IMG/VR virus record: IMGVR_UViG_2778260992_000001
DNA: 64,000 nt
Origin: a virus
Lineage: Duplodnaviria > Heunggongvirae > Uroviricota > Caudoviricetes
Direction: 5' to 3' (one strand)
Shown here: in pieces, positions 16,034 through 56,803 of the stretch
Layout: every line of letters starts with the position of its first letter
How positions within the stretch are numbered: position 1 is the stretch's first letter
The notes under the pieces: generated by a model
Database searches by the model: none
Told to the model about the DNA's origin: nothing
What the model saw: only the letters and a program-made list of their open reading frames with translations
Position numbers and translations under genes: made by a program

Positions 16034-16048
16034 GAAAACAATTTGTTT
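16034..16048. promoter_or_regulatory. class-1 palindromic element GAAAACAATTTGTTT
   Basis: AAAACAA-N-TTGTTT inverted repeat about 20 bp upstream of start codon. Confidence 0.5.
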
Positions 16049-16064
16049 AAAAGGATAAGAAAAC

Positions 16065-16490
16065 ATGACAGCTATTAAGAAACTCTACGATGCCGCAAAC
16101 GTGGCTCTGGATGTTATTGATGATGAAGTAGCAAAAGGCTTTCCTGAACCTGATTGGGCGCATCAGCTACGAAACGCTATCGCAGAAATGACCCCACCAG
16201 ATCCACCCCCCGACGAGACAGACTGGCAGCGATTCATCCGTATGTACGCTCAGGAAATAGGTCCAACGCCAACGGCAGAGCAGGCAATGCTGCTGAAATA
16301 CTTCAAAGAGGCGGGAGAGGATTTACCAATTGATGACTCAGCATATTGGTTCCACTGCGCATGGCGTAAGTATGACGTGATATTCACACAAGGCATGGGA
16401 AGCAAAGATATGGTTGTGTGGCATCTACTCCATATAGACACAGCCGTTGACAGAGTTATTGAACAGTTTTTCCCTAAACAAGAAGATTGA
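16065..16490 (+). CDS. hypothetical protein
   Basis: 141-aa ORF with class-1 element upstream. Confidence 0.5.
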   Translation: MTAIKKLYDAANVALDVIDDEVAKGFPEPDWAHQLRNAIAEMTPPDPPPDETDWQRFIRMYAQEIGPTPTAEQAMLLKYFKEAGEDLPIDDSAYWFHCAWRKYDVIFTQGMGSKDMVVWHLLHIDTAVDRVIEQFFPKQED

Positions 16491-16545
16491 TCGCCTATTC
16501 ATAACTAACAAAATAAGTAAACACTAACCACAAAAGGAAAAACAC

Positions 16546-16821
16546 ATGAGAGTTTTAGTTCGAATCGTTACCAGCACTGTCTATGACGTGTTTCCGCTTT
16601 TTATGGTCAAAGCCGATGGCCTTAACGACGAAGAAACTGACGCGCTGATCCAGCGCATTCTCGTTGAATATACAGGTCATGACGCTGATTCAGTGATGGT
16701 TGATGATGATGGTGTTTGTTGGCATAACGGCAACTGTTGGTACGTAGAAGAGACTCAACAAATCAGTGATGAAGATGCCGCACATCTTGAGCGTATTTTA
16801 AGCATCAGCACTTTTGAGTGA
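16546..16821 (+). CDS. hypothetical acidic protein
   Basis: 91 aa, Asp/Glu-rich; conserved AAAGGAAAAACACATG initiation context. Confidence 0.5.
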   Translation: MRVLVRIVTSTVYDVFPLFMVKADGLNDEETDALIQRILVEYTGHDADSVMVDDDGVCWHNGNCWYVEETQQISDEDAAHLERILSISTFE

Positions 16822-17036
16822 GTTTACAGTAAAATTTATATAAGTTAGTATCTACCTATCATGAAGATTTTTATTGAATACTTGTTACTCATCGTGTCAA
16901 TAGCTTTTGTCATCGACTGCATTTTCACTGGTGTCATTCGTAAAGTCTTTTCCCCGGTGAACGAAGTAGTCATAAACGCTTTGGCTATCGTGCTCGTATT
17001 TAATTCAGCATTTGATGTAATCAAAGAGGTGGCAGC

Positions 17037-17372
17037 ATGAAGGCCATCCCATTCGCTCTGTTGTTCCTTTCTTCGATCGTTGTGGCCGACACCACTGTTT
17101 ATCAGTGTGAAATGTCTGTAGCCGACATTAAGAATGGCGCTTTTACCGACGTCATAAAAGCACCATATGGCGCGATGGTCGTAGACAGCGGCGACCAGTT
17201 CTATGTAGTGCGTGACGATCGAGTATTGTCATCCCCATATCTCACAAACCGTAATGGCAAATTAACCGGCGTAGGAGAAGACCACTTCGTATACAACAAA
17301 TACAAGGGCTTCTATGGCGTTCACGCTTCTCAGCAAAGCTACCTTTTCGATGACTGCAAGGAGGTTGGATAA
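17037..17372 (+). CDS. hypothetical secreted protein
   Basis: N-terminal signal peptide MKAIPFALLFLSSIVVA. Confidence 0.5.
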   Translation: MKAIPFALLFLSSIVVADTTVYQCEMSVADIKNGAFTDVIKAPYGAMVVDSGDQFYVVRDDRVLSSPYLTNRNGKLTGVGEDHFVYNKYKGFYGVHASQQSYLFDDCKEVG

Positions 17373-17584
17373 TGGCATTAACACTGGCAGGTCTGGAAAT
17401 CGAGAAAACAAGCGGCTACTGGCGTGCTAAGGGTTTCAAGCAGCCTGGCATTCTTGAGCGTCTGGAACGTGAAGATGGGTATATCGTCCACCAGCGGCGT
17501 GAATGGCGTATGTACGATCCAGAAACAGGAAAACTGACTACAAAAGCCGGAACACTTTGGGGTCTGTTAAAGAAAATACACTAA
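17372..17584 (+). CDS. hypothetical protein
   Basis: 70-aa ORF overlapping the previous stop. Confidence 0.4.
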   Translation: MALTLAGLEIEKTSGYWRAKGFKQPGILERLEREDGYIVHQRREWRMYDPETGKLTTKAGTLWGLLKKIH

Positions 17585-17593
17585 ATGCAAACT

Positions 17594-17615
17594 GACTGCG
17601 GCACGTGCCGCAGTC
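17594..17615. terminator. palindromic stem-loop GACTGCGGCACGTGCCGCAGTC
   Basis: Perfect palindrome right after the stop codon, before the iteron array. Confidence 0.5.
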
Positions 17616-17631
17616 ATATTTCATAGTCGTC

Positions 17632-18164
17632 ACCGCTGACAGCATACACAATCAATTACCGCTGATAGCATATCGAGAGTTTATCTCACCGCTCACAGCA
17701 TACTTTACTCGATTTTTTACCGCTGACAGCATACTTAAGACATTGCATGAATAATGTGTACCGGTATGGGTATAACCAGAACAAAATTACCGCTGGCAGC
17801 ATACGAAGGTCTGACATATACCATTAATTACCGCTGATAGCATATCCAAACAAAAATTCCTCAATAAAACACCGCTGACAGCATACGTTCTATCAGGGAG
17901 CAGCAGGCAATAAATGCCTTTCACTACAAGCAATCAGCGCAACGGCAATAGAATGTTAGTGAGCGCAAACCTATATGGAATGCACTCTTCGAGGTTAGTA
18001 ACCACTGGGGAGGTATGCCAGAGCATTGAGTGGTGATAGATGATTTACCGCTCACAGCATACGTTTATCTCACTATACCGCTGGTAGCATATCTTTAACC
18101 GTTCACAGCATACTTTTCAGAAAAATAGCCGCTGATAGCATACATTTCACCGCTGACAGCATAT
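17632..18164. repeat. incA-like iteron array (12 copies of ACCGCTGACAGCATAC and variants)
   Basis: 16-bp direct repeats at irregular 25-45 bp spacing downstream of repA, as in P1 incA. Confidence 0.8.
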
Positions 18165-19258
18165 CAAAGCAGTTTGAGACTATTGGAAAGGATCTCAATC
18201 ATCTTGATATTTTCAGGCGTCAAATTCTGCGAAAGTTCGGTTATCTTGTTGATAATGTTCTGTTTGGCATCAATTTCCCCAGCTTTCTCATCTGGTTTTT
18301 TGGGTTCGATGTCTTCAGGTTTTGGCGGTGCGACTTTGAGTTTTGGATTGCGGCTGTGAATCTGGATATAGATCGACCGCCCACGCTTAATCTCGCTGTA
18401 TTCGAGATAGCCCAAATCTTGGAGAGCTTTTAATCCGTTACGTATAGTCTGATTCTGCGAGCTGACATTCCTGCTACTCAAATTGAGTCGCGCACGCAAT
18501 CGAGCAAGCGATACCGGCGCAGGCTTGGTTGGAAGACTTTCGATGAAGGTGTACAGAGCCTGTGCTGTTTCTTTGCGTGGTAGCTTATTGATAACCTTTA
18601 ACTGCAAAAGAACCTTATGGTCAAAGCGATATAGTTCGGCCAGCTTCGGTTCTGCATAGAACACCACCGTATCTTTCTGCTCGTTGTAGTCCACGCTATT
18701 GATGAGGTGCACCATCAGAAGCGAGATCTTGTTAGAGCCGTCGACGTTCTTTTCTTCATACGTTCTCTGGAAAGACAGAGTTGTACGCATGATCTTCAAA
18801 AGACTGTTTGTAAGCCGGTCGCGGAGTGTTTTGCGGATCTGTGACGATGGATAGCCACAAAACTTCGCAAATTTCGTGATGCTTAACTCGACACGACCAT
18901 TAGGTTCGCCGTATTCTGCCAGCGAACGCACAACGCCCACCCACGTTTTGAAATCATGATCCATGTCCAGGCGAGGACCGGTTATCTTGATATCGGAATA
19001 GCCTTCAGAACGGGCTACTTCGAGCTGGACAAGCTCCTTTGAAGCATCGATCTCATTTGGCTTGTTACGTTTACTGTATTTTGTTCCCTTAAGCGTGGGG
19101 ACGAACAACCCCAGTCGCATCAACGCAATTGGTTGGACTGTATTGTTGCTATTAGGGACAAGTTCCCCTGTGTACAATTCAAGGGAACCTTCTTCAAAGT
19201 TGTCGATGTTATCTTCTACTTCTTTGTTATTTTTACCTTTTTTATTTTTTGTGGACAT
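18164..19258 (-). CDS. repA: plasmid replication initiator RepA (P1 RepA-like)
   Basis: Blocks NSNNTVQPIALMRLGLFVP, EGYSDIKITGPRLDMDHDFKTW, AQALYTFIESLP and IQIHSRNPKLK closely match P1 RepA as remembered; start set at MSTKNK because the upstream track extension runs over the iterons. Confidence 0.85.
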   Translation of the reverse strand: MSTKNKKGKNNKEVEDNIDNFEEGSLELYTGELVPNSNNTVQPIALMRLGLFVPTLKGTKYSKRNKPNEIDASKELVQLEVARSEGYSDIKITGPRLDMDHDFKTWVGVVRSLAEYGEPNGRVELSITKFAKFCGYPSSQIRKTLRDRLTNSLLKIMRTTLSFQRTYEEKNVDGSNKISLLMVHLINSVDYNEQKDTVVFYAEPKLAELYRFDHKVLLQLKVINKLPRKETAQALYTFIESLPTKPAPVSLARLRARLNLSSRNVSSQNQTIRNGLKALQDLGYLEYSEIKRGRSIYIQIHSRNPKLKVAPPKPEDIEPKKPDEKAGEIDAKQNIINKITELSQNLTPENIKMIEILSNSLKLL

Positions 19259-19278
19259 GTGGACACCTTTGTCATTCA

Positions 19279-19380
19279 ACCGCTGACAGCATACTTGATT
19301 TGCCGCTGACAGAATACCAAAAACAGTTGGCAGCATACGGTGAACCGCTGACAGACTATCAATTACCGCTGACAGCATAC
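19279..19380. repeat. origin iterons (about 5 copies of ACCGCTGACAGCATAC family) upstream of repA
   Basis: Same repeat as the downstream array, between repA start and the GATC cluster. Confidence 0.8.
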
Positions 19381-19420
19381 ATGAACATGGCTTCAGACCA
19401 GTCGTGGCGCGGCTTACAGC

Positions 19421-19495
19421 GATCGGGGATCTTATTTGATCTATACAAGGATCTATCTATGGATCTCTTTATTAGGATCTATCCTGTGGATATGT
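19421..19495. other. origin-associated GATC cluster (6 sites in about 60 bp) with DnaA-box-like TGTGGATAT
   Basis: Organisation DnaA box - GATC repeats - iterons - repA mirrors P1 oriR; a Dam methyltransferase is encoded in the window. Confidence 0.65.
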
Positions 19496-19579
19496 GAATA
19501 ATTAAAACAGGCATTTACTACCTTCGGCGCACCTGGTGGGTTATCGTTGCCTCGGCTAACAATCACAGAAAAATGACAT

Positions 19580-20224
19580 ATGGATCTAAAACGCACGCGC
19601 TGGGTTCGTCGTCTTGAAGACGGCTCCTACACTATCGAATCAAATTCCAACCTGAATAAGCAGAAGTTGCTTTGTGACATCTGCGGTATAGCGGCGAAGT
19701 GCCCGATCTACGAAACCAGAATTAAACTTGATAAGGCTGGTGTGAATTTTCATTTAAACAGTTGCATCAGGTACGTTCCATTACTCGCATTTCGTAAACC
19801 GATCATCGGATTGGATGCTCCCTACTTCAACACACTCCGTTCAGGTGTGACGTGGCGAGATCGTTTATCACCAGACAAGCTGATTTGCCTCGTATCCGCA
19901 GACACAGGGAAAATCATCCGTTTTGGGAAAGTAGACAAGGTTTACTCAGGCCCAGTAGACGAAATGTTGCGGAAACACAGCCGGTTTAATCATCTCTGTA
20001 TGGGTGGTGAGAAAATCGAGAAGGTAGAAGAAGTGATCCGCAAATCCTACGGACACTTTCTGACCAAAGATAGCCTGCTCACCGCAATCTACATCAGACA
20101 TGTAAAACGTGAGTTCGACCTCGAATACCACAGCGAAGAAGAGCTTAACCTTGTTGACCCACGTCCAAAAGCTGGCGTCATAAGCATAAACGCAGCGCGT
20201 AAAAAGCCCACTGACGCGCTGTAA
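19580..20224 (+). CDS. hypothetical protein
   Basis: 214-aa ORF adjacent to origin; Cys-rich N-terminus. Confidence 0.5.
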   Translation: MDLKRTRWVRRLEDGSYTIESNSNLNKQKLLCDICGIAAKCPIYETRIKLDKAGVNFHLNSCIRYVPLLAFRKPIIGLDAPYFNTLRSGVTWRDRLSPDKLICLVSADTGKIIRFGKVDKVYSGPVDEMLRKHSRFNHLCMGGEKIEKVEEVIRKSYGHFLTKDSLLTAIYIRHVKREFDLEYHSEEELNLVDPRPKAGVISINAARKKPTDAL

Positions 20225-20345
20225 CCCTCCAGATCGTATATTGGCGTAGATAGAATCTACGCCCCCTCAAAATAGCTCTCATAGCGTTCTACAGTGATCC
20301 TGTCTTATTTTTAGTCATACAGACAAGCAAAGTTGCGCCACGATA

Positions 20346-20366
20346 AATAGGTATATACTTACTTAT
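20346..20366. promoter_or_regulatory. class-2 palindrome AATAGGTATATACTTACTTAT
   Basis: Upstream of the sbcD-like gene. Confidence 0.4.
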
Positions 20367-20478
20367 AAATTTTGTATATTAAGGCGCTCGTTTCATTCCT
20401 AACATACCGTTATGCATAGTTGTTTACCTCCTCATTGCTCTTAGAATTTGTATCAAAATAACCACAAAGGAAAAATAC

Positions 20479-21564: not shown

Positions 21565-21793
21565 AGCAAAGTCGTTATGGGAGCTTTCGAGACTTTGCCA
21601 TCACGATGAAAAGACTTGAACGAGGCCAGACGGTGATGTTTCACAAGCCCTACCCGCCACAAGGAAATCCCGTAGCGTTTTATCTTGGAAGGTTAACAAG
21701 AAAAGGCGTATTGAGGCGCAGATCCTTCCCGGCGCATACGGAGTTCAGATTGAAAGAAGGCCAAAAGCTAACACACGGTATCAGAGGTGTTAT

Positions 21794-24443: not shown

Positions 24444-24452
24444 GGAGACTAT

Positions 24453-25022: not shown

Positions 25023-25028
25023 TTTCAT

Positions 25029-25050: not shown

Positions 25051-25095
25051 TAACATGGGCCACTATATTTAGTGGCCCTCTTTATTTGGTGATAC

Positions 25096-27411: not shown

Positions 27412-27416
27412 CATAT

Positions 27417-27470: not shown

Positions 27471-27488
27471 AGATAACAACTTGTTTAA
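27471..27488. promoter_or_regulatory. class-1 palindromic element ATAACAACTTGTTTAAAC
   Basis: Upstream of nrdB; preceded by a second copy TTGTTTAAACAA. Confidence 0.5.
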
Positions 27489-29746: not shown

Positions 29747-29764
29747 ATAAGTAATTACTTATCT
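29747..29764. promoter_or_regulatory. class-2 palindrome AATAAGTAATTACTTATC
   Basis: Perfect ATAAGTAATTACTTAT palindrome about 15 bp upstream of the thyA start. Confidence 0.45.
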
Positions 29765-35623: not shown

Positions 35624-36204
35624 TAGATAAGTACAAACTATTCATAAGATGGATTGTAAGTGCTAAGATCTGATAGTTTCCAGTCGTAGACTGGAGACTC
35701 GACCTGATGGGTGGGGGTAAGCGTCACTGGCGTCAGGTTTAAAAAAGCTCACTACCAGCGTAGAACCGGTGCCGTTTAGGTGTCGGGGAAGGGGGAACCA
35801 AAGTGAGCGGAGACAAGGGTCACTTTATGATTGTCGAGTCTGGGATGTTTCGAGAGGTTGAATCCAGTACTCCCCTTCATAAAGTGTGGGAAGATCTCGG
35901 TTCTGGGGTGCTGTCATCCATAACTTCCCAAGTCTAAGCTGGCAGTAGACTTAGACCATAGCTTTTCAGGTTATGAAACGACCAGGTTGGTGAGGAATTT
36001 TATACTCACCTCCCTGGGAGAGTATTACCTGAAAAGACAACCTCTCACTTCGTTCGAGGTGAACTTCACTCACTTCGTTCGTTCAGTTCAGGTTTATAAA
36101 AACCTGTACTGGGAAGTAATTTGTTTATTTTAATAATTATTACACGCACGCGTGTGCGCACGCGCGAGGAAAAAATCGGCGCGGCGCTTGATTCAGGAGT
36201 TTAT

Positions 36205-37690: not shown

Positions 37691-37707
37691 GAAAACAACT
37701 TGTTTTG
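37691..37707. promoter_or_regulatory. class-1 palindromic element GAAAACAACTTGTTTTG
   Basis: Perfect AAAACAA-c-TTGTTTT about 25 bp upstream of start codon. Confidence 0.5.
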
Positions 37708-38419: not shown

Positions 38420-38434
38420 GAAAACAACTTGTTT
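38420..38434. promoter_or_regulatory. class-1 palindromic element GAAAACAACTTGTTT
   Basis: About 20 bp upstream of start codon. Confidence 0.5.
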
Positions 38435-38452
38435 AAGCATTAGGAAAAACAC

Positions 38453-39022
38453 ATGTGCAAGAAATGCAAAGCGATAGCTGATGAACAAAACGCCTTATTC
38501 GAAGAAATGGATGCTAATGAACTGGTCAAAATGTTAGCCATTCTTCGAGGAATAGAAGACGTTTCCATATTTGAGAGAGTGGTTACAGCACTTAATTTTG
38601 AGTCCACCTTTGAAGAGCCAACTCAGGTTGTAGCTTTAGCACATCATTTCGGTGTTCATTATCTTGCTGAAAAAGAGCGCGCTGATAAGTTGCAGGCGAC
38701 TTTGGATATGGTGAGCGAGACTCAACGAACTGATGACACTAACAAGAGTGAGGCGATTATTGCCAGCAAAGATCGTGAAATTGCTGGGCTTAAATCCTCT
38801 CTAACGATGTTGATGTCTGCGTTCAATCTTATGTCTTCTCAGGCGGGTTATAAAATGCCATCACTAAACAGCGATGATCCGATGGCCGTTCGTCAGCTTT
38901 TGGGAGCAATGGCCGACCAACTCGACGACACAAAGAGTCGGCTTGAAGACATGATGCGTGAGTTAAGCCATCGACATAACCTCGCAACACAGCCACACAA
39001 AGCCTTTCAAAGCTCTAATTGA
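38453..39022 (+). CDS. hypothetical protein
   Basis: 189-aa ORF, helical. Confidence 0.5.
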   Translation: MCKKCKAIADEQNALFEEMDANELVKMLAILRGIEDVSIFERVVTALNFESTFEEPTQVVALAHHFGVHYLAEKERADKLQATLDMVSETQRTDDTNKSEAIIASKDREIAGLKSSLTMLMSAFNLMSSQAGYKMPSLNSDDPMAVRQLLGAMADQLDDTKSRLEDMMRELSHRHNLATQPHKAFQSSN

Positions 39023-42911: not shown

Positions 42912-43030
42912 ACGCTACAAATCCTTCGGCATGAATAAATAAAGGCCATAAGTTGTGGCCTTAAATAAATTGTTTTCTACATTTTCTTATTTGTGAAAAT
43001 AACCACAACTAGAAAACAACGGAGTTAAGA

Positions 43031-43672
43031 ATGTCTAGTATTTCCGAAGCTCATATGTTCGCCGCTGGCGCTCATGGTGGCGTTGGTCAGAAAAGAAAAT
43101 ATACCGGCGAAGACTACATCAACCACCCGGTTGCTGTCCGAGAGATTGTTGCATTGCATGACGGAACCGTGGAGATGCAAATCGCGGCGCTTCTGCATGA
43201 TGTGGTCGAAGACACCCATGTAACCATAGAGATGGTTCGTGATCACTTCGGTGAGCGCGTAGCTGAAATGGTTCAGGCTCTGACCAACATTGCAAGGCCA
43301 GAAGACGGCAATCGAATACAGCGTTTCATCATCAATGTCCGGGAGCTGGAGCAAAATCTCGACATGCAGACGCGCATGATCAAGCTGGCTGACCTGCTCG
43401 ACAATACCTCTTCTATCGTGAGTCGCGATCCCGAGTTTTCAGCTGTCTACCTCGCAGAGAAAGAACTGATGCTGGACGTACTCTTTCACGGCAAAGAGAT
43501 TGGTGCCAATGCTGATGTTGTCGAGTACATGGAGAGGATAGGTATAGAACACCCGTTGCTATTAAGCGCAATGGCGAAAGTCACTGAAGGTATTGCGCTT
43601 CTGAAACCGGTACACATCAAACGTTATGAAAAACACAAATCGCTGATCTGGAGCGCGTGGGAGGCTGCATGA
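43031..43672 (+). CDS. HD-domain (p)ppGpp hydrolase (SpoT/Mesh1-like small alarmone hydrolase)
   Basis: YINHPVAVREIVAL ... AALLHDVVEDT ... FGERVAEMVQALT matches the SpoT-type HD hydrolase signature. Confidence 0.75.
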   Translation: MSSISEAHMFAAGAHGGVGQKRKYTGEDYINHPVAVREIVALHDGTVEMQIAALLHDVVEDTHVTIEMVRDHFGERVAEMVQALTNIARPEDGNRIQRFIINVRELEQNLDMQTRMIKLADLLDNTSSIVSRDPEFSAVYLAEKELMLDVLFHGKEIGANADVVEYMERIGIEHPLLLSAMAKVTEGIALLKPVHIKRYEKHKSLIWSAWEAA

Positions 43673-46097: not shown

Positions 46098-46720
46098 GCA
46101 CGGTAGCGAAAGATCTCACAGAAGATATTCTCAATGAAATTATTGCTGGTGCAAATACCTCGCTTGAGCAACTTCTTGCGTTAGCACTGAGAGCCGAACG
46201 TCGAGACAGAAATCGTTTTTATGAGCGATTACCAGGGAAGCGACCAGATAGATCGGATGAAGAAGGTTGCGATATAGACTACATGGAGCCTTCAGAGATT
46301 TATCAACTTGGTAAAGATGACGGCTGGAACGCTTATCACGATGCTGTGATGAAGTTGGATGAAAAAGTTAAACCTCTTTCTCGACCGGTAGATCACGGTT
46401 TCCGCGATAACTGCGAATGCTCTAGTTGCCAGACCACGGCCCGTATTTGTTCCGAATTGACAGATAAGTCCAGCCTAATCTACGAAGTTAATGTAGGCGG
46501 TAATACATGGGTCGAATGCACAAGAGCTGCATACGTAAGAGCAAAAGACAAGGGTGAATTAACCAGAGTTGTTACCCATCACCCAAATAATGAGCTTAAA
46601 GATCACCAGATTAGAGAACTGGTGAACGAGTTGCGGGATATTGCGGTTCAGTACCACGGAGCGCAGCAATTGCGGGAGAAAATTGCCAGAGCAGTGAACA
46701 ACTCAGTCCGTAAAAAATAA
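46094..46720 (+). CDS. hypothetical protein
   Basis: 208-aa ORF; hairpin GGCCCCAT ... ATGGGGCC downstream. Confidence 0.45.
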   Translation: MSTVAKDLTEDILNEIIAGANTSLEQLLALALRAERRDRNRFYERLPGKRPDRSDEEGCDIDYMEPSEIYQLGKDDGWNAYHDAVMKLDEKVKPLSRPVDHGFRDNCECSSCQTTARICSELTDKSSLIYEVNVGGNTWVECTRAAYVRAKDKGELTRVVTHHPNNELKDHQIRELVNELRDIAVQYHGAQQLREKIARAVNNSVRKK

Positions 46721-46825
46721 GCAATAGTACGATAAAGAGGCCCCATGCTCTTGATGGGGCCTGTAGCAACTAGCGTTATGGACGCTGGTTTACGTACTCA
46801 ATGATCGCTTTGATAATCGCGAACA

Positions 46826-47127
46826 TCGGCGGCACGATTTTGAACAGTAAGTTAACCATAACAGGCCTCACTTAGTTTTATCGCGCCTAGCTGCAAATAC
46901 CTTTGGGCTTGCCTTTGCAGTTGCAATATCTGTAGTCGCCAGATACTTACGGCACGATTTCGAGTTAAGGTAAGGTTTTAGAGTCACCAAAAACCTGGAC
47001 TTAAATCTTCTTTGAGAACAACGATGTTTGGTAAATGGTCATTATTACCTAGCATGACGGCTCAACGTTTCTTGATGAATCCAGTACATTCGGTTAATCT
47101 TAGCTCAGTCGCCAGATACTTATGGCT
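46826..47127. repeat. interleaved direct repeats (GTCGCCAGATACTTAYGGC x2; GGCACGATTTYGA x2), parS-like
   Basis: Contain TCGCCA hexamers and CGATTTCGA/CGATTTTGA, resembling P1 parS box B and box A as remembered. Confidence 0.35.
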
Positions 47128-47157
47128 CAGGAACAGAGGCGCAAACTCTGTTTCCTT

Positions 47158-47190
47158 TTAAAAAGCCCAGCCTAGTCAACTGGGCTTTTT
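47158..47190. terminator. bidirectional rho-independent terminator
   Basis: AAAAAGCCCAG-cctagtcaa-CTGGGCTTTTT. Confidence 0.7.
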
Positions 47191-47485
47191 AATGTCCGTT
47201 TTTAACCAAATGTACCCACAATACCGCAACATCAGTGTCTTGCGAATTAAGATAGGATTTATAGAGACTATGTGCAAGTGCATAACTTTGTGGATAACTC
47301 GTAAAGGAAAAAGTGGTTTCCGCGGACATTAGTTCAGACAAGGAGTCTGGGAAAGTCAATGGGAAGTAAAAATTTGTTAAAAATAACGTTTGTTGGAATT
47401 GTATATATTTATGCCTTTCAATAGTTAGCATCTTATTAACATCTTTTTTAAGAGATAGAGTTCAAAAATATATAGCTTCAACATA

Positions 47486-47505
47486 TACTGTATGCATATA
47501 CAGTA
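47486..47505. promoter_or_regulatory. LexA (SOS) box
   Basis: TACTGTATGCATATACAGTA, perfect CTGT-N8-ACAG palindrome 17 bp upstream of the umuD-like start. Confidence 0.75.
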
Positions 47506-47521
47506 TTAAGAGGCGAGTATT

Positions 47522-47911
47522 ATGGGCTTCCCTTCTCCTGCGGCGGATTATGCTGAGAGCCGTATTTCTCTTGATCAGCAGATAATTAGACATCCTTCAG
47601 CGACCTACTTCATGAGGGCAGCTGATAGTCATCATCGTGAGGGAATATTACAGGGTGCATTGCTGGTGGTCGATTCCTCACTTACCCCGGTTGATGGTTC
47701 TCTGCTTGTATGCGCTCTGGATGGGGAATATCGCGTAAAAAGATACCGGAAGTATCCACGTCAGCATCTGGAGGATTTAAGAACCGGTAAGAAGGAAGCA
47801 TTGCCAAAGGATGACGATGGATGCACGGGCAGCAATGCCGTGTTTGGTGTGATCACTCACATTATCAACGACGCAAGAAGTGGCGAGTTTGATGATTGTC
47901 CCGTGATGTAG
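47522..47911 (+). CDS. UmuD-prime-like SOS mutagenesis protein (P1 HumD-like; S24 LexA-type fold)
   Basis: GFPSPAADYAESRI ... HPSATYF ... VDGEYRVKR aligns with the UmuD C-terminal domain but lacks the N-terminal arm; 129 aa; LexA box upstream; no umuC partner adjacent. Confidence 0.7.
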   Translation: MGFPSPAADYAESRISLDQQIIRHPSATYFMRAADSHHREGILQGALLVVDSSLTPVDGSLLVCALDGEYRVKRYRKYPRQHLEDLRTGKKEALPKDDDGCTGSNAVFGVITHIINDARSGEFDDCPVM

Positions 47912-47923
47912 GAGAACTGATTA

Positions 47924-47948
47924 GGCGGTGCAATGCACCGCCTTTTTA
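47924..47948 (+). terminator. rho-independent terminator after umuD-like gene
   Basis: GGCGGTGC-aat-GCACCGCC followed by TTTTT. Confidence 0.65.
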
Positions 47949-49049: not shown

Positions 49050-49206
49050 CCCGTCTCCTTTATTTTAATTTGCGCAATTGTCGCCTTGTAGTGTACTCCA
49101 GCTACGACATTTAATCATTTATGAGAAATGCTGTTATCACATGGCAGACATAAGGCCATTTTGTTACTATCAAGCCCCTTTTCACTACAAAGAAGTAATG
49201 CCTACT

Positions 49207-51240: not shown

Positions 51241-51323
51241 TTAAGCAACCATTCTTCACAATGCCCGGCAATACGCTGGGCATTTTCATTTAGACACAAT
51301 CCCTTCTGATTTACACATACCCT

Positions 51324-51338
51324 AAAACAATTTGTTTT
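51324..51338. promoter_or_regulatory. class-1 palindromic element AAAACAATTTGTTTT (first of a tandem pair)
   Basis: First element-type motif after the metG stop; second copy GAAAACAACTTGTTTT at about 51374-51389. Confidence 0.5.
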
Positions 51339-51401
51339 CTGCCTTTTGTTGATTGAGATAATAAACCACATAAGAAAACAACTTGTTTTGGAGTGGTTTA
51401 A

Positions 51402-51701
51402 ATGTTGAACATTACCCAAGCCTACCAGGTGGCATTGATCAGCTCATCTCATACATCAGAGGAAGATGCTCGCCGATTCATGATCGCAAGCAATGAGCTG
51501 GATTGGGTTTCACAAATTGAGTACGGTTGCATTGTCCACGCCGGGTTACAGGATGATGTCTGGAAAGACAACTTGCGTCGATATGGTATATCCGAGGGCG
51601 CGATTTCGAACATTCAGAAGGTACTTGATGTAGGCTTCGACTCTGTACATTTCGATTGTGGCGCACCGGTCGTTGAAGGGCTTGAGTGCTGGCAATGGTA
51701 A
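51402..51701 (+). CDS. hypothetical protein
   Basis: 99-aa ORF with class-1 elements upstream. Confidence 0.5.
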   Translation: MLNITQAYQVALISSSHTSEEDARRFMIASNELDWVSQIEYGCIVHAGLQDDVWKDNLRRYGISEGAISNIQKVLDVGFDSVHFDCGAPVVEGLECWQW

Positions 51702-51737
51702 TCCGGCAATCGCTTCATACTAGATAACGGAGAATTT

Positions 51738-51923
51738 ATGCTTAAAGAAGACTCATATCTACTAAAGGCGCTTGAAATGCGTGGCGTTGAACCTACAGTG
51801 AAAAACGCCCACGATATCTACCTTCAGTTTTCACCGGAGCTGAAACGGCTCATAAATCAATACGGGGTTAATGACTCAAGTGTTAAAGCGATGATAGATG
51901 ATGAATTAGACCATCTCATCTAA
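51738..51923 (+). CDS. hypothetical small protein
   Basis: 61-aa ORF. Confidence 0.4.
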   Translation: MLKEDSYLLKALEMRGVEPTVKNAHDIYLQFSPELKRLINQYGVNDSSVKAMIDDELDHLI

Positions 51924-52075
51924 TCGTTATCCTATGATAATGGTTTCACTTTGAGATTGTCATTTTTCATAGCCAAAGCTGATGTTTGTGGAAGGTGGAT
52001 TGATAAACGGATGCGTATTTAGGTTATACAAGTGAGAAAATTGATAATATATAAAAGCGATTTTTATGTGATGGA

Positions 52076-52645
52076 ATGGATGTGATGGAAACCCAGAACC
52101 AACAAACAAAACCTCTGAATAACATTTATGCGTGGATTCTAGCGTTCATGCCTTTCTTCTTTGGAGTATTGCCGGAAGAGTATACCAATTACGCTATTAT
52201 AATTGGGGGTGTAACTACCATCGGTTTGTTAGTAGCTGACAGAATGGCTCTATCGGAGTCTGGCTGTGAACCACCTTCAATTCTATGGGGGGTATTCCTC
52301 CTGCCTGTCTATCTCTGGAAGCGCGCGACTATTACAAAAGGCAGCAGAGTGCCATTTATCATAATCGTTGCGTCGCTGGCTTGGATTATCTTCATCGGCA
52401 TCCCACACAAGGACGAGGTTGCTCTTGAAGAAGCAGCCTGCCCTCTCGTGACAACTATTCTGAAAGAGAATAACGGTTCGACTGCACCAAAATGTATGAA
52501 GGTGACAATAGAGGACAAGGTGACGGATAAGTTCTATAGAGCAACGGCTACACTAGACAATGGTAATGACATTAACATTACTCTGGAACTTACCGGTGAC
52601 AGGAACTTCTACGTCCGTGTTCCAAATGTTTATCTGAACAACTAA
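52076..52645 (+). CDS. hypothetical membrane protein
   Basis: 189 aa; N-terminal hydrophobic helices, soluble C-terminal domain. Confidence 0.5.
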   Translation: MDVMETQNQQTKPLNNIYAWILAFMPFFFGVLPEEYTNYAIIIGGVTTIGLLVADRMALSESGCEPPSILWGVFLLPVYLWKRATITKGSRVPFIIIVASLAWIIFIGIPHKDEVALEEAACPLVTTILKENNGSTAPKCMKVTIEDKVTDKFYRATATLDNGNDINITLELTGDRNFYVRVPNVYLNN

Positions 52646-52759
52646 CGGTTGCAACTTATTGATAATGGCGGTCACAATTTGATTCTTTTCTATAAGAATC
52701 CGTTGATCGCCACTACTCCCCTTCCATACCTGCAATCATACCCTTAAATATCAATAGGT

Positions 52760-53560
52760 TATGGTTGTTTATACAAATAAGAAAACAACTAAATAACAGA
52801 TCAACGAAACGTCAACGCTTTCACCCGATTTGGTCTAAAAAATTGACGTTTTCACACATCACTTCTTATACCCGTAACTCTACGCAGCAGACAGCGCCAC
52901 AGCGTCCAATTTTCACCACAGACGACCCAACACACTACCAACAAAAACACACGCTCAAAATCGCTCCCGTTGCGTTACGCAACCATATAAACAACTTATT
53001 TTCAGGCATAACAAAACAACTAAATAACACACATGCCATTCCCAAAAACAACCAACCTCTTTATGGCAGGCTACCGAAAAGACCCACCTCTTCTCCCCAG
53101 GCTACCGGACAACCAACCTAACTTTCACAGGCAATCCGAAAACATTCATACGCGCGATACCCACGACACGCCATTACCCAAACAGCGAAGAAATACCAGA
53201 CTCACTGAAACCCCAACGAAGCCTGTTACCGCAAGGATTCTCTCAATCCCAAAAGACACGAAACAGAACAATCACGGGAAACGCCATTACCCAATACACG
53301 AATAACTACAAAAGCCTTTCAGGCACTCCAGACAAACAACTCAAACACAATAACGAAAGCAATCGCCCACCTGCCATTACTCCATACACGGAGAAGAACA
53401 ATCACCAAAACGACGAGAACACCCCATAGAAGAACCACCGCAAAACGAACGAAACCACATACACCGACAGAGAAAACAACACACCCAATTCACCAACAGA
53501 AATAGTCGCCGTATAGGACATTCTGGAAGGAGTGAGCATTAACGCCTATAGAGAGGTTGA
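52760..53560 (+). repeat. strongly strand-asymmetric A+C-rich, G/T-poor tract with degenerate internal repeats (candidate ncRNA or Rho-loading region)
   Basis: By eye about three-quarters or more A+C on the + strand over about 0.75 kb; repeated GCCATTACCCAA and AAAACAACTAAATAACA units; putative -35 TTGACG (52843-52848) and -10-like at 52866-52871; track ORFs here are low-complexity. Confidence 0.5.
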
Positions 53561-53618
53561 GACAGATAAAACACAACATGTATAGCGAAGAAGCCAGGTA
53601 TGTATAAGTGGGGATGGA

Positions 53619-53645
53619 AGGAGGGGTGTCGCCTCCTTTTTCGTA
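53619..53645 (+). terminator. rho-independent terminator closing the A+C-rich tract
   Basis: AGGAGG-ggtgtcg-CCTCCT followed by TTTTCGTATTT. Confidence 0.6.
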
Positions 53646-53699
53646 TTTATTCAACTCCTGATTTTATCCCCCGTAACACCCCTACGGTCAGCCTTCGGT

Positions 53700-53840
53700 C
53701 CATACAGGGGAAAGGCTGCATCCCGCTACAGAAACGGCTGGGTTGCCTTTGGGAACGGCTGGAGGTTTTCAGGGAAACGGTCGAGTTGCCTGTGTGGATT
53801 TCGGGAAAAGGCTCGATGCCGGTTCAGGAACGGTGGCGTA
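53700..53840. repeat. cluster of GRAAACGGC repeats (copy 1)
   Basis: GGGAAAGGCTG, AGAAACGGCTGG, GGGAACGGCTGG, GGGAAACGGTCG, GGGAAAAGGCTCG, GGAACGGTGG within about 140 bp. Confidence 0.55.
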
Positions 53841-54167
53841 CCGGTATAGCGAGAGGGAGAGTTGCGGCTACCCACCTGTAATGTGCGGGAAGAAGAGAGG
53901 CGCTCACGTAGGCGGACTTGCTTACCGCTGGATTCCCTCTGAATGCCCAGCTACAGCGTAATTGTGCCAGACAGCCAACGGGTCACAATCGATTTCAGTA
54001 GGTTTTTGGGGAGAGGATTACTCTGCCACCAGCCACTTTCGGCCACTAAATCAGAATAATGTAAAAAGTGTACTCGGTACTGAACCTGAAAACTCACTGC
54101 CAAAACCACATTCACCGGAACAAAATCCTTTTTCGCCTGTGCGTTATTGCGATAATAACACCATCAA

Positions 54168-54182
54168 GAAAACATGTTGTTT
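54168..54182. promoter_or_regulatory. class-1 element GAAAACATGTTGTTT with extended -10-like TGCGATAAT upstream
   Basis: CGATAAT-ACACCA-CAAGAAAACA block conserved with the 56.3 and 56.8 kb copies. Confidence 0.5.
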
Positions 54183-54194
54183 AAGGATTGCTTT

Positions 54195-54524
54195 ATGTTT
54201 ACAAATATCGACATCAACCAAATCAAGAAATTAACTCAAAAAGAGTTTGATCAGTTTTATGAGTTAGAAGGTTGGTCTTCCACTCTGATCAATTCAAGAT
54301 GGGTGCTGGAACTGATGACTCGTGATGACGCACCTGCTTTGATGATCAGCGACCTGGGTGAAGATGCTGACTTTATGGATATGAGCGAATTTTGTGTGGA
54401 CACATACAACCGCAGCCAGAAGTACTACTTCACATGCGATAGCGAAAATGACGTGATTTCTAAGGTCTATCTTCACCTCGTCCAGCATTGGGACGTTCAG
54501 GAGTTTCTTGAAGTATTCGAGTAA
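54195..54524 (+). CDS. hypothetical small acidic protein
   Basis: 109 aa, Asp/Glu-rich; start at ATG after AAGGA RBS. Confidence 0.5.
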   Translation: MFTNIDINQIKKLTQKEFDQFYELEGWSSTLINSRWVLELMTRDDAPALMISDLGEDADFMDMSEFCVDTYNRSQKYYFTCDSENDVISKVYLHLVQHWDVQEFLEVFE

Positions 54525-54650
54525 CCCCAACCAAAGCCAGCATTGCTGGCTTAATTTCTCTATAGCCGCAGGGAAGAACCTGCATATAGCTCATGCACCT
54601 GATCAATATGCTTTGTAGCCGTTTTCTTACTGGTATTATTTACGCCATTG

Positions 54651-54668
54651 AGAAAACAAGTTGTTTAC
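54651..54668. promoter_or_regulatory. class-1 palindromic element GAAAACAAGTTGTTTAC
   Basis: Upstream of the 54678 start. Confidence 0.5.
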
Positions 54669-54677
54669 GGAGTTGTG

Positions 54678-54989
54678 ATGAAAAAATCATTGGTTCTTGG
54701 TCTGGACAAAGACCAGAAGAGAAAAGAGAAGCCTGCGCTGGTTGCTCAATTAACTTTGCTGGACATCGTTGCCAATGGAACCTCTATTCGTCTGTTCCGT
54801 GAAACAGCGGTGTCTTTCGATAAAAACACCTTTACTCGTTATGTAATGAATGTTCGTCGCCAGCGTGGAAAAGGCTGGGTGGCATTTCAAAGAATGTGGC
54901 CGGAACATCAGCTCGAACTGGCTTTGATGGAAGTTAACCGCGTGGCCCAGCAAGAGATTCAGAGAGCATCAGTGATGGCAATAGCCTGA
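54678..54989 (+). CDS. hypothetical small basic protein
   Basis: 103 aa; start at ATG after GGAG (track ORF begins at a TTG codon, 54648). Confidence 0.5.
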   Translation: MKKSLVLGLDKDQKRKEKPALVAQLTLLDIVANGTSIRLFRETAVSFDKNTFTRYVMNVRRQRGKGWVAFQRMWPEHQLELALMEVNRVAQQEIQRASVMAIA

Positions 54990-55022
54990 TAATGTGCAAG
55001 TGGTAATTAGTCGACCGTACGA

Positions 55023-55050
55023 CAGCCCCGCCATCCTTACGGGGCTTTTT
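55023..55050 (+). terminator. rho-independent terminator
   Basis: AGCCCCG-ccatccttac-GGGGCT followed by TTTTTT. Confidence 0.65.
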
Positions 55051-55055
55051 TGTAT

Positions 55056-55071
55056 TGTAAGTACATACTTA
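55056..55071. promoter_or_regulatory. class-2 palindrome GTAAGTACATACTTAC
   Basis: Perfect 7-bp arms; between terminator and next gene. Confidence 0.45.
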
Positions 55072-55115
55072 CGATCATAGAATATAAAAATAACCAAAAC
55101 ACTACGGAGAGTGAA

Positions 55116-55511
55116 ATGACCGTTAAACGCGAAAAACTGACAGTTGATGTTTACTATGCCTCTGAAACCGCCGAAGGTAAGAATGTGGCAAAAATCACCG
55201 TTGTTACGTACAACACCGAAACTGGTGCCGAAGTCCAGGCCAGTACGATCGTGCGTAAAGGTGATGCCTCCGGCGGCGAGTACGCGACTCAATACCAGTC
55301 CATTCTCGATGCAACTGACCCGCTGCTGCTGAAAATCGAGAACTACTTCCGCCAGGTTAATGAAGAGGTGTTTGAAACCATGATGAATATGGTTAACACC
55401 GTATTCGCCTCCAGCCTGAATACCAACACTACCTGGATTGGTCAGTACGGCCTGCGCATTACCTCTGGCATTCCTGCCGACACCTTAATCCCTGAAAGCG
55501 TATTCGCTTAA
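55116..55511 (+). CDS. hypothetical protein
   Basis: 131 aa; start at ATG after GGAG RBS. Confidence 0.5.
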   Translation: MTVKREKLTVDVYYASETAEGKNVAKITVVTYNTETGAEVQASTIVRKGDASGGEYATQYQSILDATDPLLLKIENYFRQVNEEVFETMMNMVNTVFASSLNTNTTWIGQYGLRITSGIPADTLIPESVFA

Positions 55512-55520
55512 TCCTCTTTA

Positions 55521-55550
55521 AATGGCGCGTAAACCGCGCCATTTTATTAT
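55521..55550 (+). terminator. rho-independent terminator
   Basis: AATGGCGCG-taaac-CGCGCCATT followed by TTATTAT. Confidence 0.65.
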
Positions 55551-55557
55551 GCCCGAT

Positions 55558-55570
55558 AACAATTTGTTTT
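55558..55570. promoter_or_regulatory. class-1 palindromic element AACAATTTGTTTT
   Basis: Same AACAATTTGTTTTCTGCC block as at 51.3 kb. Confidence 0.5.
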
Positions 55571-55628
55571 CTGCCTTATCTGATTTGTGAAAATGATTTC
55601 ACTGAAGCAACTTAATAAGGAAACCATC

Positions 55629-56003
55629 ATGGGACTTGATATCTATATCGAGACGCAGCCTAAAAACGATCTGAATAACGAGGCATCCAGAAAGCAGGTT
55701 GCTTACTTCCGTAAGTTCAATGCGCTCGTTGGGTGGATGGAGCGCAACGTAGGTGAAGTCGAAAATTGTGAGCTTTTAGAATTAACGATGAATGACATTT
55801 GTTTTCTGAAGGCTCATTTGATGCACATAAACGAAAGTAATTGCGAAGAGTACTTGCCTACCCGGGAAGGTTTTTTCTTCGGCAGTCAGGAGTACGATGA
55901 AGGTTACTGGCATGATGTGGGGCAGTTGAAAGAGCTTGTGGAAGATCTGATTAAGAACCACGACTTTCACAATAACAGACTGACCTTCTGCGCCTGGTGG
56001 TAA
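55629..56003 (+). CDS. hypothetical small acidic protein
   Basis: 124 aa; start at ATG after AAGGA RBS (track ORF begins at GTG 55587). Confidence 0.5.
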   Translation: MGLDIYIETQPKNDLNNEASRKQVAYFRKFNALVGWMERNVGEVENCELLELTMNDICFLKAHLMHINESNCEEYLPTREGFFFGSQEYDEGYWHDVGQLKELVEDLIKNHDFHNNRLTFCAWW

Positions 56004-56154
56004 ATATGGGCGATTTCAAGAAACGCCTGAAGGAAAGAGCCGAGATGGTCAGAAAGCAAAACGCCTCTTCTGTCATCAGATACGCAAGGCAGTTTAGTCG
56101 CAACAACAAATCAGTTGAGGAAAAGATCCTTAGCGTAATCGGGCGATAATTATT

Positions 56155-56178
56155 AAGGCCACCAGCATTGGTGGTCTT
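56155..56178 (+). terminator. hairpin AAGGCCACCAGCATTGGTGGTCTT (repeat copy 1)
   Basis: Near-identical copy at 56625-56648; both followed by AAATGACT. Confidence 0.5.
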
Positions 56179-56304
56179 AAATGACTTTTAATAACCGAAG
56201 GTTAGTTTGAAACCTGGCTATCAACTTCCATAACCTTTCTTGTGTATTCAGCCTGTATTAACTTCTTTTATGCCTTATCTACACTGCGATAATTACACCA
56301 ACAA

Positions 56305-56319
56305 GAAAACAACATGTTT
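56305..56319. promoter_or_regulatory. class-1 element GAAAACAACATGTTT with upstream TGCGATAAT
   Basis: Conserved promoter block. Confidence 0.5.
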
Positions 56320-56338
56320 ACGCAGTTAGGATATGCTC

Positions 56339-56620
56339 ATGACTGATTTCACCATTACCCCTAAAGCACAAAATGTATTTCTTGAATCATGGCTGGACTT
56401 GCCGGAAACAGAACAGCAAGAAATGGATCATGTGGATTATGACGAGCAGGTAAGCACGCGATTCTTCCACTTTGAGGGATGCGTTTACGACATTGTCGAC
56501 TTCATGCGAGATGACCGCTTCCCTGAATGGCACGCAAGCTATCCACTAAACGCCTTTGCCATGCTGATGATCCGTGTGGATGATTCAGGGGATACCATCG
56601 ACATCGGTCTGCTCCACTAA
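56339..56620 (+). CDS. hypothetical small acidic protein
   Basis: 93 aa, strongly acidic (DLPETEQQEMDHVDYDEQ); start at second ATG with better RBS spacing. Confidence 0.5.
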   Translation: MTDFTITPKAQNVFLESWLDLPETEQQEMDHVDYDEQVSTRFFHFEGCVYDIVDFMRDDRFPEWHASYPLNAFAMLMIRVDDSGDTIDIGLLH

Positions 56621-56624
56621 AGGC

Positions 56625-56648
56625 TAAGGCCACCAGCATTGGTGGCCT
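56625..56648 (+). terminator. hairpin AAGGCCACCAGCATTGGTGGCCTT (repeat copy 2)
   Basis: Perfect stem; duplicate of the 56155 hairpin. Confidence 0.5.
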
Positions 56649-56789
56649 TAAATGACTATCTTGTTTCCCGCAGGCTAAAAACACCAACCTCTTACCTCCA
56701 GGCAACCGACAAACCCACCTGTTCCCGTCCGGCTACCGTAACTTTCCACTTTGACGCCTTATTCGTACAACGATAATTAACACCAACAA

Positions 56790-56803
56790 GAAAACAATTT
56801 GTT
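56790..56803. promoter_or_regulatory. class-1 element GAAAACAATTTGTT with upstream CGATAAT
   Basis: Conserved promoter block. Confidence 0.5.

Follow-up and report, generated by a model that had tools for sequence, protein, structure and literature searches.

A candidate dispersed operator: the AAAACAA-N-TTGTTTT palindrome in promoter modules of SSU5-like phage-plasmids

Introduction

In the phage-plasmid P1, many operons are held silent by a single protein, C1, through one short site found at many scattered promoters, and in the plasmid RK2 (IncP) the operators of KorB and KorA are palindromic sites of 13-15 bp that are repeated 12-20 times in plasmid promoter regions, the class I operators of KorB (OB) lying at about -39/-40. 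Dozens of copies of another short site, the stoperator, occupy the short intergenic regions of the lytic array of phage L5 and serve in prophage silencing, and the main dyad of the lac operon (O1) stands about one helical turn downstream of the transcription start, at +11, accompanied by an upstream copy (O3). The element described here is a palindrome with AAAACAA and TTGTTTT arms that recurs in IMG/VR virus record IMGVR_UViG_2778260992_000001 (Caudoviricetes), of which a stretch of 64,000 nucleotides (nt), hereafter the window, was analysed. As in P1, the setting appears to be a phage-plasmid with one short site at many scattered promoters; as in RK2, some copies stand near the class I OB position, and two ParB_N proteins are encoded in the window; as in L5, the copies lie in short intergenic regions; and as in lac, the main dyad has a predicted position of about +14, with an upstream copy 51 bp away on roughly the same face of the helix.

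By megablast, the window is about 97% identical to Escherichia phage Cyrano (pLF82) and to CMS-2020a, and parts of it are 80-88% identical to Salmonella phage SSU5 and to Klebsiella phage-plasmids; it is therefore assigned to the SSU5/pHCM2 type of phage-plasmid, and its source is, on sequence grounds, an SSU5/Cyrano-like phage-plasmid of E. coli. An identical DnaE is encoded on the E. coli plasmid NZ_CP014490.1 (PLSDB). The window holds a rightward array of replication, recombination, nucleotide-metabolism, and small accessory genes, together with a few leftward genes. SSU5-like phage-plasmids are very common in clinical Enterobacterales, and the conserved genes examined occur in more than 800 PLSDB plasmids, including those of the S. 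Typhi pHCM2 type and Y. pestis pMT1. It is proposed here, with a probability of about 0.55, that the palindrome is a dispersed DNA operator within a conserved promoter module of the rightward replication, nucleotide-metabolism, and accessory genes.

Enrichment and conservation of the palindrome

The consensus AAAACAA-N-TTGTTTW was found at 15 intergenic sites in the window. Exact matches to AAAACAA-N-TTGTTTT number three against 0.02 expected, and matches with up to three mismatches 18 against 8.1 expected. A 17-mer matrix (AG followed by the 15-mer), trained only on the sites of SSU5 and of the Klebsiella phage-plasmid pJN2-26 and so independent of the window, returned 17 matches of at least 15 bits against 0.15 expected from Markov shuffles, both strands being counted so that one site can count twice. 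Sites with up to two mismatches are all intergenic, the sole exception being a weak copy at 59707 inside a coding sequence. The motif scan that the initial annotation had called for therefore found the element enriched and intergenic, and a copy lies within 3 nt of each position in its list (16035, 27473, 37692, 38421, 51324, 51375, 54169, 54653, 55556, 56306, and 56791) apart from the one at about 43010, where only a half-site is present at 43013 (AAAACAACGGAGTTA, 12 bits); three sites, at 2569, 42962, and 52988, were absent from that list.

Among the relatives, Cyrano carries 19 sites (those at parA, at a helicase gene, and in the terS leader falling outside the window), SSU5 carries 21, and pJN2-26 carries 15. 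Motif and layout also recur in Nissabacter-type plasmids, in an integrated E. coli copy, and in Y. pestis pMT1. The flanks at the sites have diverged to 67-80% identity or are non-homologous, and many sites precede non-orthologous genes. Across 307 distinct site contexts with up to two mismatches, positions A3, A6, and T13 of the 15-mer are invariant (307/307), T10 is kept in 304, and C5 and G11 are each kept in about 294. A sample of 818 kb of enterobacterial chromosomal sequence, obtained for a different purpose and drawn only from around flagellin genes, gave no match of at least 15 bits, which argues against a common host regulon; by comparison, related plasmids gave 20-26 such matches each, both strands counted. 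An exact-pattern scan of viral contigs returned mostly single chance matches, together with SSU5-like contigs, and no description of the motif string or of SSU5 promoter control was found in the searchable literature.

In distant Acinetobacter relatives (DnaE about 37% identical, same synteny), the AAAACAA motif was not found. These elements carry a dispersed palindrome of their own, ATC-AGTCA-N4-TGACT, which would be expected if regulator and operator form pairs encoded by the element. On the A. baumannii plasmid NZ_CP115642.1, about 12 copies per 50 kb were counted, some of them within a promoter spacer (TTGATC-17-TATAAT); the plasmid also encodes a 179-amino-acid protein annotated as Hfq, and neither its annotation nor the syntenic position shows an FljA-like gene.

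In the relatives, one or two palindrome copies stand in the leader of the terS (late) operon, 25 bp apart in Cyrano and SSU5 (Cyrano 56-130, pJN2-26 38627-38690). A GC-rich hairpin and a T-run follow directly after the palindrome, just before the terS start codon, in an arrangement that looks like an attenuator or an antitermination point.

The promoter module

Two classes of copy can be told apart by position. Class A, the majority, comprises the sites at 16035, 27473, 37692, 38421, 51375, 54169, 54653, 56306, and 56791, the degenerate copy at 43013, and, by position, the copy at 2569; class B (42962, 51324, 52988, and 55556) follows a hairpin and lies upstream of the promoter. The order of parts in the module is a terminator-like hairpin, a T-rich weak -35 region, TGnGATAAT, a gap of 12-13 nt (tACACCAACAAG), AAAACAA-N-TTGTTTA, a Shine-Dalgarno sequence, and ATG. 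In a survey of 155 distinct class A contexts (83 related loci), 81 have 12 nt and 43 have 13 nt between the -10 and the palindrome, and the distance from palindrome to Shine-Dalgarno sequence is variable (0-32 nt, being 0-1 nt in 70 of the 155). The TG of the extended -10 is present in 95 of 128 class A contexts, and the class A flank holds G directly before the palindrome in 31 of 31 cases and A in 29 of 31. In the -35 region only a T-rich TTTTnnnCC is seen, with no recognisable hexamer at 16-18 bp. The hairpins that precede the copies do not have the form of intrinsic terminators, TAAAYAA standing between hairpin and T-run with no immediate U-tract, and they were not listed as terminators by a scan of the window. 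A sigma-28 promoter (GCCGATAA) was ruled out, as its -35 does not fit.

The fixed gap to the -10 over related loci bears out the earlier proposal of a shared promoter-associated element just downstream of an extended -10, and several of its details are revised. From predicted start sites, the class A palindrome would occupy about +7 to +21 rather than +1 to +20. The extended -10 is evident at 51375, 54169, 54653, and 56306 (TGnGATAAT or TGGTATTAT), relaxed at 2569, 42992, and 55586, and reduced at 56791 to the hexamer GATAAT with no TG. The proposed placement 15-40 bp upstream of start codons does not hold for 42962, 51324, 52988, and 55556, which sit upstream of the promoter and not in the leader.

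Four class A modules on the + strand lie towards the right of the array. At 54148-54183, the extended -10 TGCGATAAT (54148-54156) is followed after 12 nt by the palindrome AAAACATGTTGTTTA (54169-54183; 23.1 bits), then by AGGA and an ATG at 54195. At 54631-54667, TGGTATTAT (54631-54639) and a 13-nt gap precede AAAACAAGTTGTTTA (54653-54667), which has the top score of 29.4 bits. The module at 56285-56320 again begins with TGCGATAAT (56285-56293), followed after 12 nt by AAAACAACATGTTTA (56306-56320; 24.7 bits), and that at 56772-56805 joins GATAAT (56772-56777) over 13 nt to AAAACAATTTGTTAT (56791-56805; 18.5 bits), with an ATG at 56825. The remaining + strand copies of this class are AAAACAATTTGTTTA at 16035-16049 (28.8 bits), after which come a Shine-Dalgarno sequence and the ATG at 16065 of a DUF7238 gene, and before which stand a terminator-like hairpin and only a weak -10; ATAACAACTTGTTTA at 27473-27487 (24.7 bits), between nrdA and nrdB after a hairpin, also with a weak -10; AAAACAACTTGTTTT at 37692-37706 (24.9 bits), upstream of a TciA-like gene (ATG 37730); and AAAACAACTTGTTTA at 38421-38435 (28.7 bits), upstream of the gene at 38453-39022. 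The copy TAAATAATTTGTTTT at 2569-2583 lies on the - strand in the leader of a cobT-like operon (ATG 2602), scoring 21.6 bits on that strand and 12.0 on the other, and TGCTACATT (2549-2557) stands 11 nt upstream of it.

Where both classes flank one promoter, their centres are exactly 51 bp apart. At the first of these promoters in the window, the class B palindrome AAAACAATTTGTTTT (51324-51338, - strand, 25.1 bits on that strand) overlaps the -35 region, the extended -10 TGAGATAAT (51354-51362, + strand) lies between the two palindromes, and the class A copy AAAACAACTTGTTTT (51375-51389, + strand) follows 12 nt after the -10, with GGAG directly behind it and the ATG of a DUF5983 gene at 51402. 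At the second, the class B copy TAAATAAATTGTTTT (42962-42976, - strand) stands directly after the hairpin aggccataagttgtggcct, and its right arm enters the -35 region of a promoter with the extended -10 TGTGAAAAT at 42992-43000; the degenerate class A copy, in which only the left arm is kept (AAAACAACGGAGTTA, 43013-43027, + strand, 12.0 bits), precedes the gene at 43031-43672. The same 51-bp pairing is found at independent SSU5 promoters (88318/88369 and 93661/93712). By the asymmetric matrix, class B is inverted relative to class A (the 42962 copy scores 25.4 bits on the - strand against less than 10 on the opposite strand), so that the pair brackets the promoter as TTGTTTTC ... GAAAACAA; the right arm of class B, TTGTTTT-C, extends into the T-rich -35 region, and the promoter-proximal arm is the better conserved in class A and class B alike. 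Two class B copies on the - strand complete the set. The palindrome TAAACAACTTATTTT at 52988-53002 (18.8 bits on that strand), of class B-like orientation, follows the hairpin gttgcgttacgcaac, and at 55556-55594 the class B copy ATAACAATTTGTTTT (55556-55570) follows a terminator-like hairpin and is itself followed by CTGCCTTAT and the extended -10 TGTGAAAAT (55586-55594), with no intact copy downstream of that promoter.

Two start codons carried over from Cyrano fall inside these elements: the ATG of the CYRAN_105 orthologue at 54174 lies within the palindrome AAAACATGTTGTTTA, and that of the CYRAN_108 orthologue at 55593 lies within the extended -10 (TGTGAAAATG). Both Cyrano-annotated starts are probably wrong, better starts with a Shine-Dalgarno sequence being available at about 54195 and 55626.

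Recognition as DNA or as RNA

The initial annotation had left the choice between an operator for a dedicated regulator and a conserved hairpin of the 5'-untranslated region. The hairpin finds no support: the folding energy of the 15-mer is negligible (-0.6 to -0.7 kcal/mol), whole leaders do not exceed shuffles in stability (z-scores of -0.6 to +0.7), and at pairs 2-7 of the 307 site contexts, which also served as the covariation set, no compensatory double changes were seen against 160 one-sided changes. Positions 7 and 9 are conserved though unable to pair across a 1-nt loop. A scan of the whole window with Rfam 15 at the gathering threshold gave no match, and a curated RNA family was set aside on that result.

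Read as a bottom-strand half-site, the right arm shows a substitution spectrum that mirrors that of the left, a symmetry that further speaks against a stable RNA hairpin. At half-site position 5, for example, C-to-T changes occur 13 times in the left arm and nine times in the right, the right-arm case being a C-A mismatch in RNA. The operator is thus preferred on account of mirror-symmetric half-sites, an inverted copy over the -35 region, and a spacing that is constant to the -10 and variable to the Shine-Dalgarno sequence; arm symmetry, class B copies outside the leader, and the fixed -10 register together favour recognition of double-stranded DNA by a symmetric oligomer. Of the two original options, the operator is accordingly the better fit, with a dedicated regulator as its presumed reader.

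Expression and proposed function

In Cyrano lysogens grown in lysogeny broth (LB), RNA sequencing (RNA-seq) placed CYRAN_85, 87, 101, 105, 106, and 110 at background (PMC9928086, S1 table), all of them genes that come directly after a class A module; expression was recorded for leftward genes, the XRE repressor gene, and several morons (PMC9928086). Promoters with a near-consensus extended -10 that are nevertheless silent require either a repressor or rapid mRNA decay. No element other than the palindrome is shared by these silent promoters, and a dispersed operator that blocks RNA polymerase at +14 is therefore favoured. Three features of dispersed repressor operators were found together, namely many intergenic copies, a position that, from predicted starts, would occlude RNA polymerase, and target genes that are silent in the lysogen.

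Under the operator reading, a plasmid-encoded DNA-binding protein, as a symmetric dimer or tetramer, would sit on the 15-mer at about +7 to +21 and, at some promoters, also on the second, inverted copy centred about -38 over the -35 region. The bound protein would block binding or escape of RNA polymerase, and some 15-20 transcription units per genome would be silenced jointly in the plasmid (lysogenic) state or shut off jointly in lytic growth. In this scheme, we infer the binding of a protein, repression by that binding, the start sites, and the identity of the protein.

A number of points weigh against a dispersed DNA operator. Pfam and PHROGs searches with about 40 proteins, a few of them from Cyrano and the others from the window, gave no obvious DNA-binding partner, and the sole protein annotated as a transcriptional regulator or repressor that Cyrano, SSU5, and pJN2-26 have in common is an FljA homologue with an Hfq/Sm fold, presumably RNA-binding. 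The divergent control region of the XRE-type gene (2040-2290) is without the palindrome, GGTAAGTGCTTACC-type dyads being present in its place. With a spacing of only about 7 bp, the half-site cores stand close together for a classical helix-turn-helix dimer. As for the promoters themselves, only weak -10-like hexamers are present at four window sites (16035, 27473, 37692, and 38421), and a generic sigma-70 scan that needs a good -35 called none of the class A promoters. Transcriptional repression and mRNA decay look alike in steady-state RNA-seq, and a copy also precedes the terS late operon in the relatives. Finally, SSU5 is without the integrase and XRE-repressor block and yet keeps all sites, so the element cannot serve lysogenic silencing alone; this suggests that it also works in lytic growth, for example in early shut-off.

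Alternative explanations

The alternative that survives best places recognition in the mRNA: the leader motif (AAGAAAACAANUUGUUUA directly before the Shine-Dalgarno sequence) would be bound by an FljA-family tandem Hfq/Sm protein that blocks translation and hastens decay, as a global repressor of early genes like T4 RegA. Unlikely as it appears on balance, it is a serious rival because FljA of Salmonella is described, in the statements of PMC2652032 and PMC4122451 that cite Yamamoto and Kutsukake (2006), as a translational repressor binding fliC mRNA. The window encodes an FljA-family protein of 174 amino acids at 59673-60197 on the - strand (PF03614, E = 2.5e-84; phrog_1444, "transcriptional repressor"), for which a tandem Hfq/Sm fold is predicted and which is core to the plasmid group, being found in 831 PLSDB plasmids including pMT1. 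The faces of Hfq bind A-rich and U-rich tracts, the kinds of tract that make up the two arms of the motif. FljA on fliC and RegA are both small repressors that act on leaders beside the ribosome-binding site; here the Shine-Dalgarno sequence often begins 0-1 nt after the motif, and low RNA in lysogens is compatible with decay. The Acinetobacter relative examined, moreover, is without the motif, its syntenic position and annotation show no FljA-like gene, and its "Hfq" gene lies elsewhere.

An exact reverse-complement palindrome with mirrored, near-invariant C5 and G11 is, however, unexpected for recognition of single-stranded RNA, and G11-to-A, a C-A mismatch at the RNA level, matches C5-to-U in frequency. 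Neither covariation nor a stable stem is found, class B copies stand upstream of the promoter and outside the leader, and the distance held fixed is that to the -10 and not that to the Shine-Dalgarno sequence; symmetry and upstream copies thus point to DNA. Identity of the protein to bona fide FljA is only about 35%, and no motif was found upstream of its own gene. The fliC leaders were fetched from 105 genomes and that of Salmonella was verified from genome contigs; the best score in the Salmonella leader was -9.6 bits (shuffle p = 0.41), and likeness to the FljA target was dropped as evidence. The 8-mer CAAGTTGT, beside the Shine-Dalgarno sequence of that leader, is the sole stretch common to it and the motif. 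No FljA-like genes were found in other virus groups, 80 of the 80 loci found being SSU5-like, and no change of the motif accompanies divergence of the FljA-like protein to 52-57% identity. A broader version can be given little credence: the SSU5/pHCM2/pMT1 family would have two layers of control, the motif in mRNA being read by a sequence-specific, Hfq-like global translational repressor of the FljA family, with Salmonella FljA as a domesticated offshoot and the DNA dyad partly the footprint of a bipartite RNA site of A-rich and U-rich halves.

It is also improbable that no trans-acting factor is involved and that the repeats are copies of a mobile promoter-leader cassette, kept alike by recombination and serving in cis only, for example as an AT-rich UP-like element, as an AU-rich translational enhancer of the T7 gene 10 type, or as shuffling homology of the type seen in the promoter-early stem-loops (PeSLs) of T4. 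The whole module is alike between non-orthologous promoters (-35 region TTTTnnnCCTTTT, TGnGATAAT, ACACCAACAAG), and homology of the window to Cyrano, SSU5, or pJN2-26 often breaks off within 7-55 bp of a module (42990-43010, 54183, 54607, 55580, and 56260-56266). A gene has apparently been inserted in the window between the class B copy at 55556 and the class A copy at 56306, which are adjacent in SSU5, and the modules look like points at which gene cassettes are exchanged. The T7 gene 10 leader AAAUAAUUUUGUUUAA agrees with the motif at 13 of 16 positions. T4 PeSLs, likewise repeated intergenic stem-loops with a sigma-70 early promoter between small accessory genes and with mosaic junctions, differ in having no conserved dyad between the -10 and the Shine-Dalgarno sequence. 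Against such an account, the palindrome is the most conserved part of the module, its flanks drifting even between orthologous sites; UP elements and S1-type enhancers are less sequence-specific and do not depend on a dyad; selection for one and the same 15-mer would be needed in two unrelated cis roles, at -38 and at +14; and strong-looking promoters are silent in lysogens, so that some repression is required. Spread of the cassette by recombination probably contributes, without explaining the stronger conservation of the dyad or the silence in lysogens.

A positive factor, either an activator or a processive antiterminator (Q- or N-like) that loads RNA polymerase at a promoter-proximal site for read-through of intergenic terminators, is quite unlikely. 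A terminator-like hairpin precedes nearly every module, the motif in the terS leader is followed by a hairpin and T-run (Cyrano 56/81, pJN2-26 38627), the -35 elements are weak, and a copy centred about -38 occupies a class II activator position; SSU5, a lytic isolate without the XRE repressor, keeps all of its sites. On the other hand, no homologue of Q, N, or another antiterminator was seen, the class A consensus has no -10-like pause element in the initial transcribed region, a site at +14 is unusual for activation, and extended -10 promoters normally need no activator.

That the plasmid exploits the site of a host enterobacterial transcription factor is hardly credible: the motif is invariant over plasmids of Escherichia, Salmonella, Klebsiella, Yersinia, and Nissabacter while candidate regulators diverge to 52-65% identity, but the chromosomal sample from around flagellin genes gave no match of at least 15 bits, the motif is not known to fit the consensus of an E. 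coli regulator, and the Acinetobacter relatives use a different palindrome.

Candidate regulators

The candidates listed for a protein that would read the motif are the FljA-like protein (at the RNA level), a 92-amino-acid protein, an XRE-type protein, and the two ParB_N proteins. The coding sequence of the FljA-like protein contains, within its 3' end, the weak copy AAAACAACTATTTTT at 59707-59721 (14.9 bits on the - strand), which is also kept in Cyrano (100814) and is probably due to chance. Between this gene and that of a UvsW-like helicase, a conserved 92-amino-acid protein is encoded at 60693-60971 (- strand), a weak candidate whose orthologue, CYRAN_117, is as highly expressed in lysogens as the repressor (PMC9928086). 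A by-eye reading of it as a ribbon-helix-helix repressor is unsupported, the AlphaFold model being poor (predicted local distance difference test score, pLDDT, of 53); Pfam gave nothing significant, and a profile search against solved structures returned only low-complexity matches to designed helical repeat proteins. The XRE-type helix-turn-helix protein at 1653-2039 (- strand; "putative repressor", CYRAN_45) is disfavoured as the binder, its own control region being without a copy. The genes of the ParB-like proteins are at background in Cyrano lysogens (PMC9928086). The FljA-like, 92-amino-acid, and XRE candidates each occur in roughly 800 or more PLSDB plasmids; as all three are equally core and the motif is invariant, phylogenetic covariation of motif and regulator does not discriminate between them. 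LexA, CRP, PurR, KdgR, parS, and IHF were set aside, their consensus sequences misfitting in spacing or in sequence.

Second dyad family and neighbouring features

A second dyad, TAAGTA-NN-TACTTA, has four exact copies in the window (14892-14905, 29748-29761, 55058-55071, and 62580-62597) against 0.02 expected, and about eight copies with up to one mismatch; looser copies lie at 4729, 20348, and 41766. It lies inside the spacer between -35 and -10 of other promoters, as in TTGAAA-17-TATTAT (14892) and TTGTAA-17-TAGAAT (55058), alternates with the AAAACAA class along the rightward array, and is also found between structural genes in Cyrano, SSU5, and pJN2-26. The earlier suggestion that the two families are distinct and stand for two regulatory classes agrees with the real enrichment of both and with their different positions in the promoter, two promoter classes being present. 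The TAAGTA dyad may distinguish promoters of a middle or late class, or may represent the operators of the XRE repressor.

Three further stretches differ from their surroundings or from Cyrano. At 1-560, about 0.8 kb between the glutaredoxin and integrase genes is missing relative to Cyrano, where it holds CYRAN_43, the top-expressed Cyrano gene in lysogens (PMC9928086); its absence from the window marks CYRAN_43 as an accessory moron. About 500 bp at 35624-36120 (approximate ends) contains no convincing gene, and the Cyrano counterpart holds the 44-codon CYRAN_81, expressed about 12-fold above background in lysogens (PMC9928086), so that a small RNA rather than a protein gene may be present. 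A gap of about 800 bp at 46720-47522, with no listed + strand open reading frame of at least 60 amino acids, precedes a 129-amino-acid protein (47522-47911) that consists of an S24 (LexA/UmuD-type) peptidase domain only and has no DNA-binding domain; high expression in lysogens is recorded for the Cyrano orthologue (PMC9928086).

Significance

A single invariant operator at some 15-20 promoters would offer a handle on how a lytic programme of about 100 kb stays silent. Such an operator would define a regulon, predict start sites, serve as bait for the regulator, and give a portable, repressible promoter module. Some annotated start codons were corrected by the analysis, and the predicted Hfq/Sm fold of the FljA family is of interest for flagellar phase variation.

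Comparison with known systems

Each of the described systems departs from the present element in particular respects. The P1 operators are asymmetric 17-mers (ATTGCTCTAATAAATTT) that lie over the core promoter, in contrast to a 15-bp dyad at about +14 and about -38, and no homologue of C1 was identified here. RK2 is set apart by sequence, that of the present element being unrelated to OB or parS, by the main position, which here lies downstream of the start, and by expression, the ParB-like genes, as noted, being at background in lysogens. Stoperators of L5 are asymmetric, orientation-dependent 13-mers that need no promoter, whereas most copies here are dyad-symmetric and held in a fixed register to the -10. 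The lac arrangement serves one promoter and not many, the upstream copy here overlaps the -35 region, and looping is hypothetical in the present case. By analogy, the mechanism would be closest to the C1 operators of P1, the KorB and KorA operators of RK2, the stoperators of L5, and the position of lac O1; the element differs from these in sequence, in its dyad form, and in its +14/-38 geometry.

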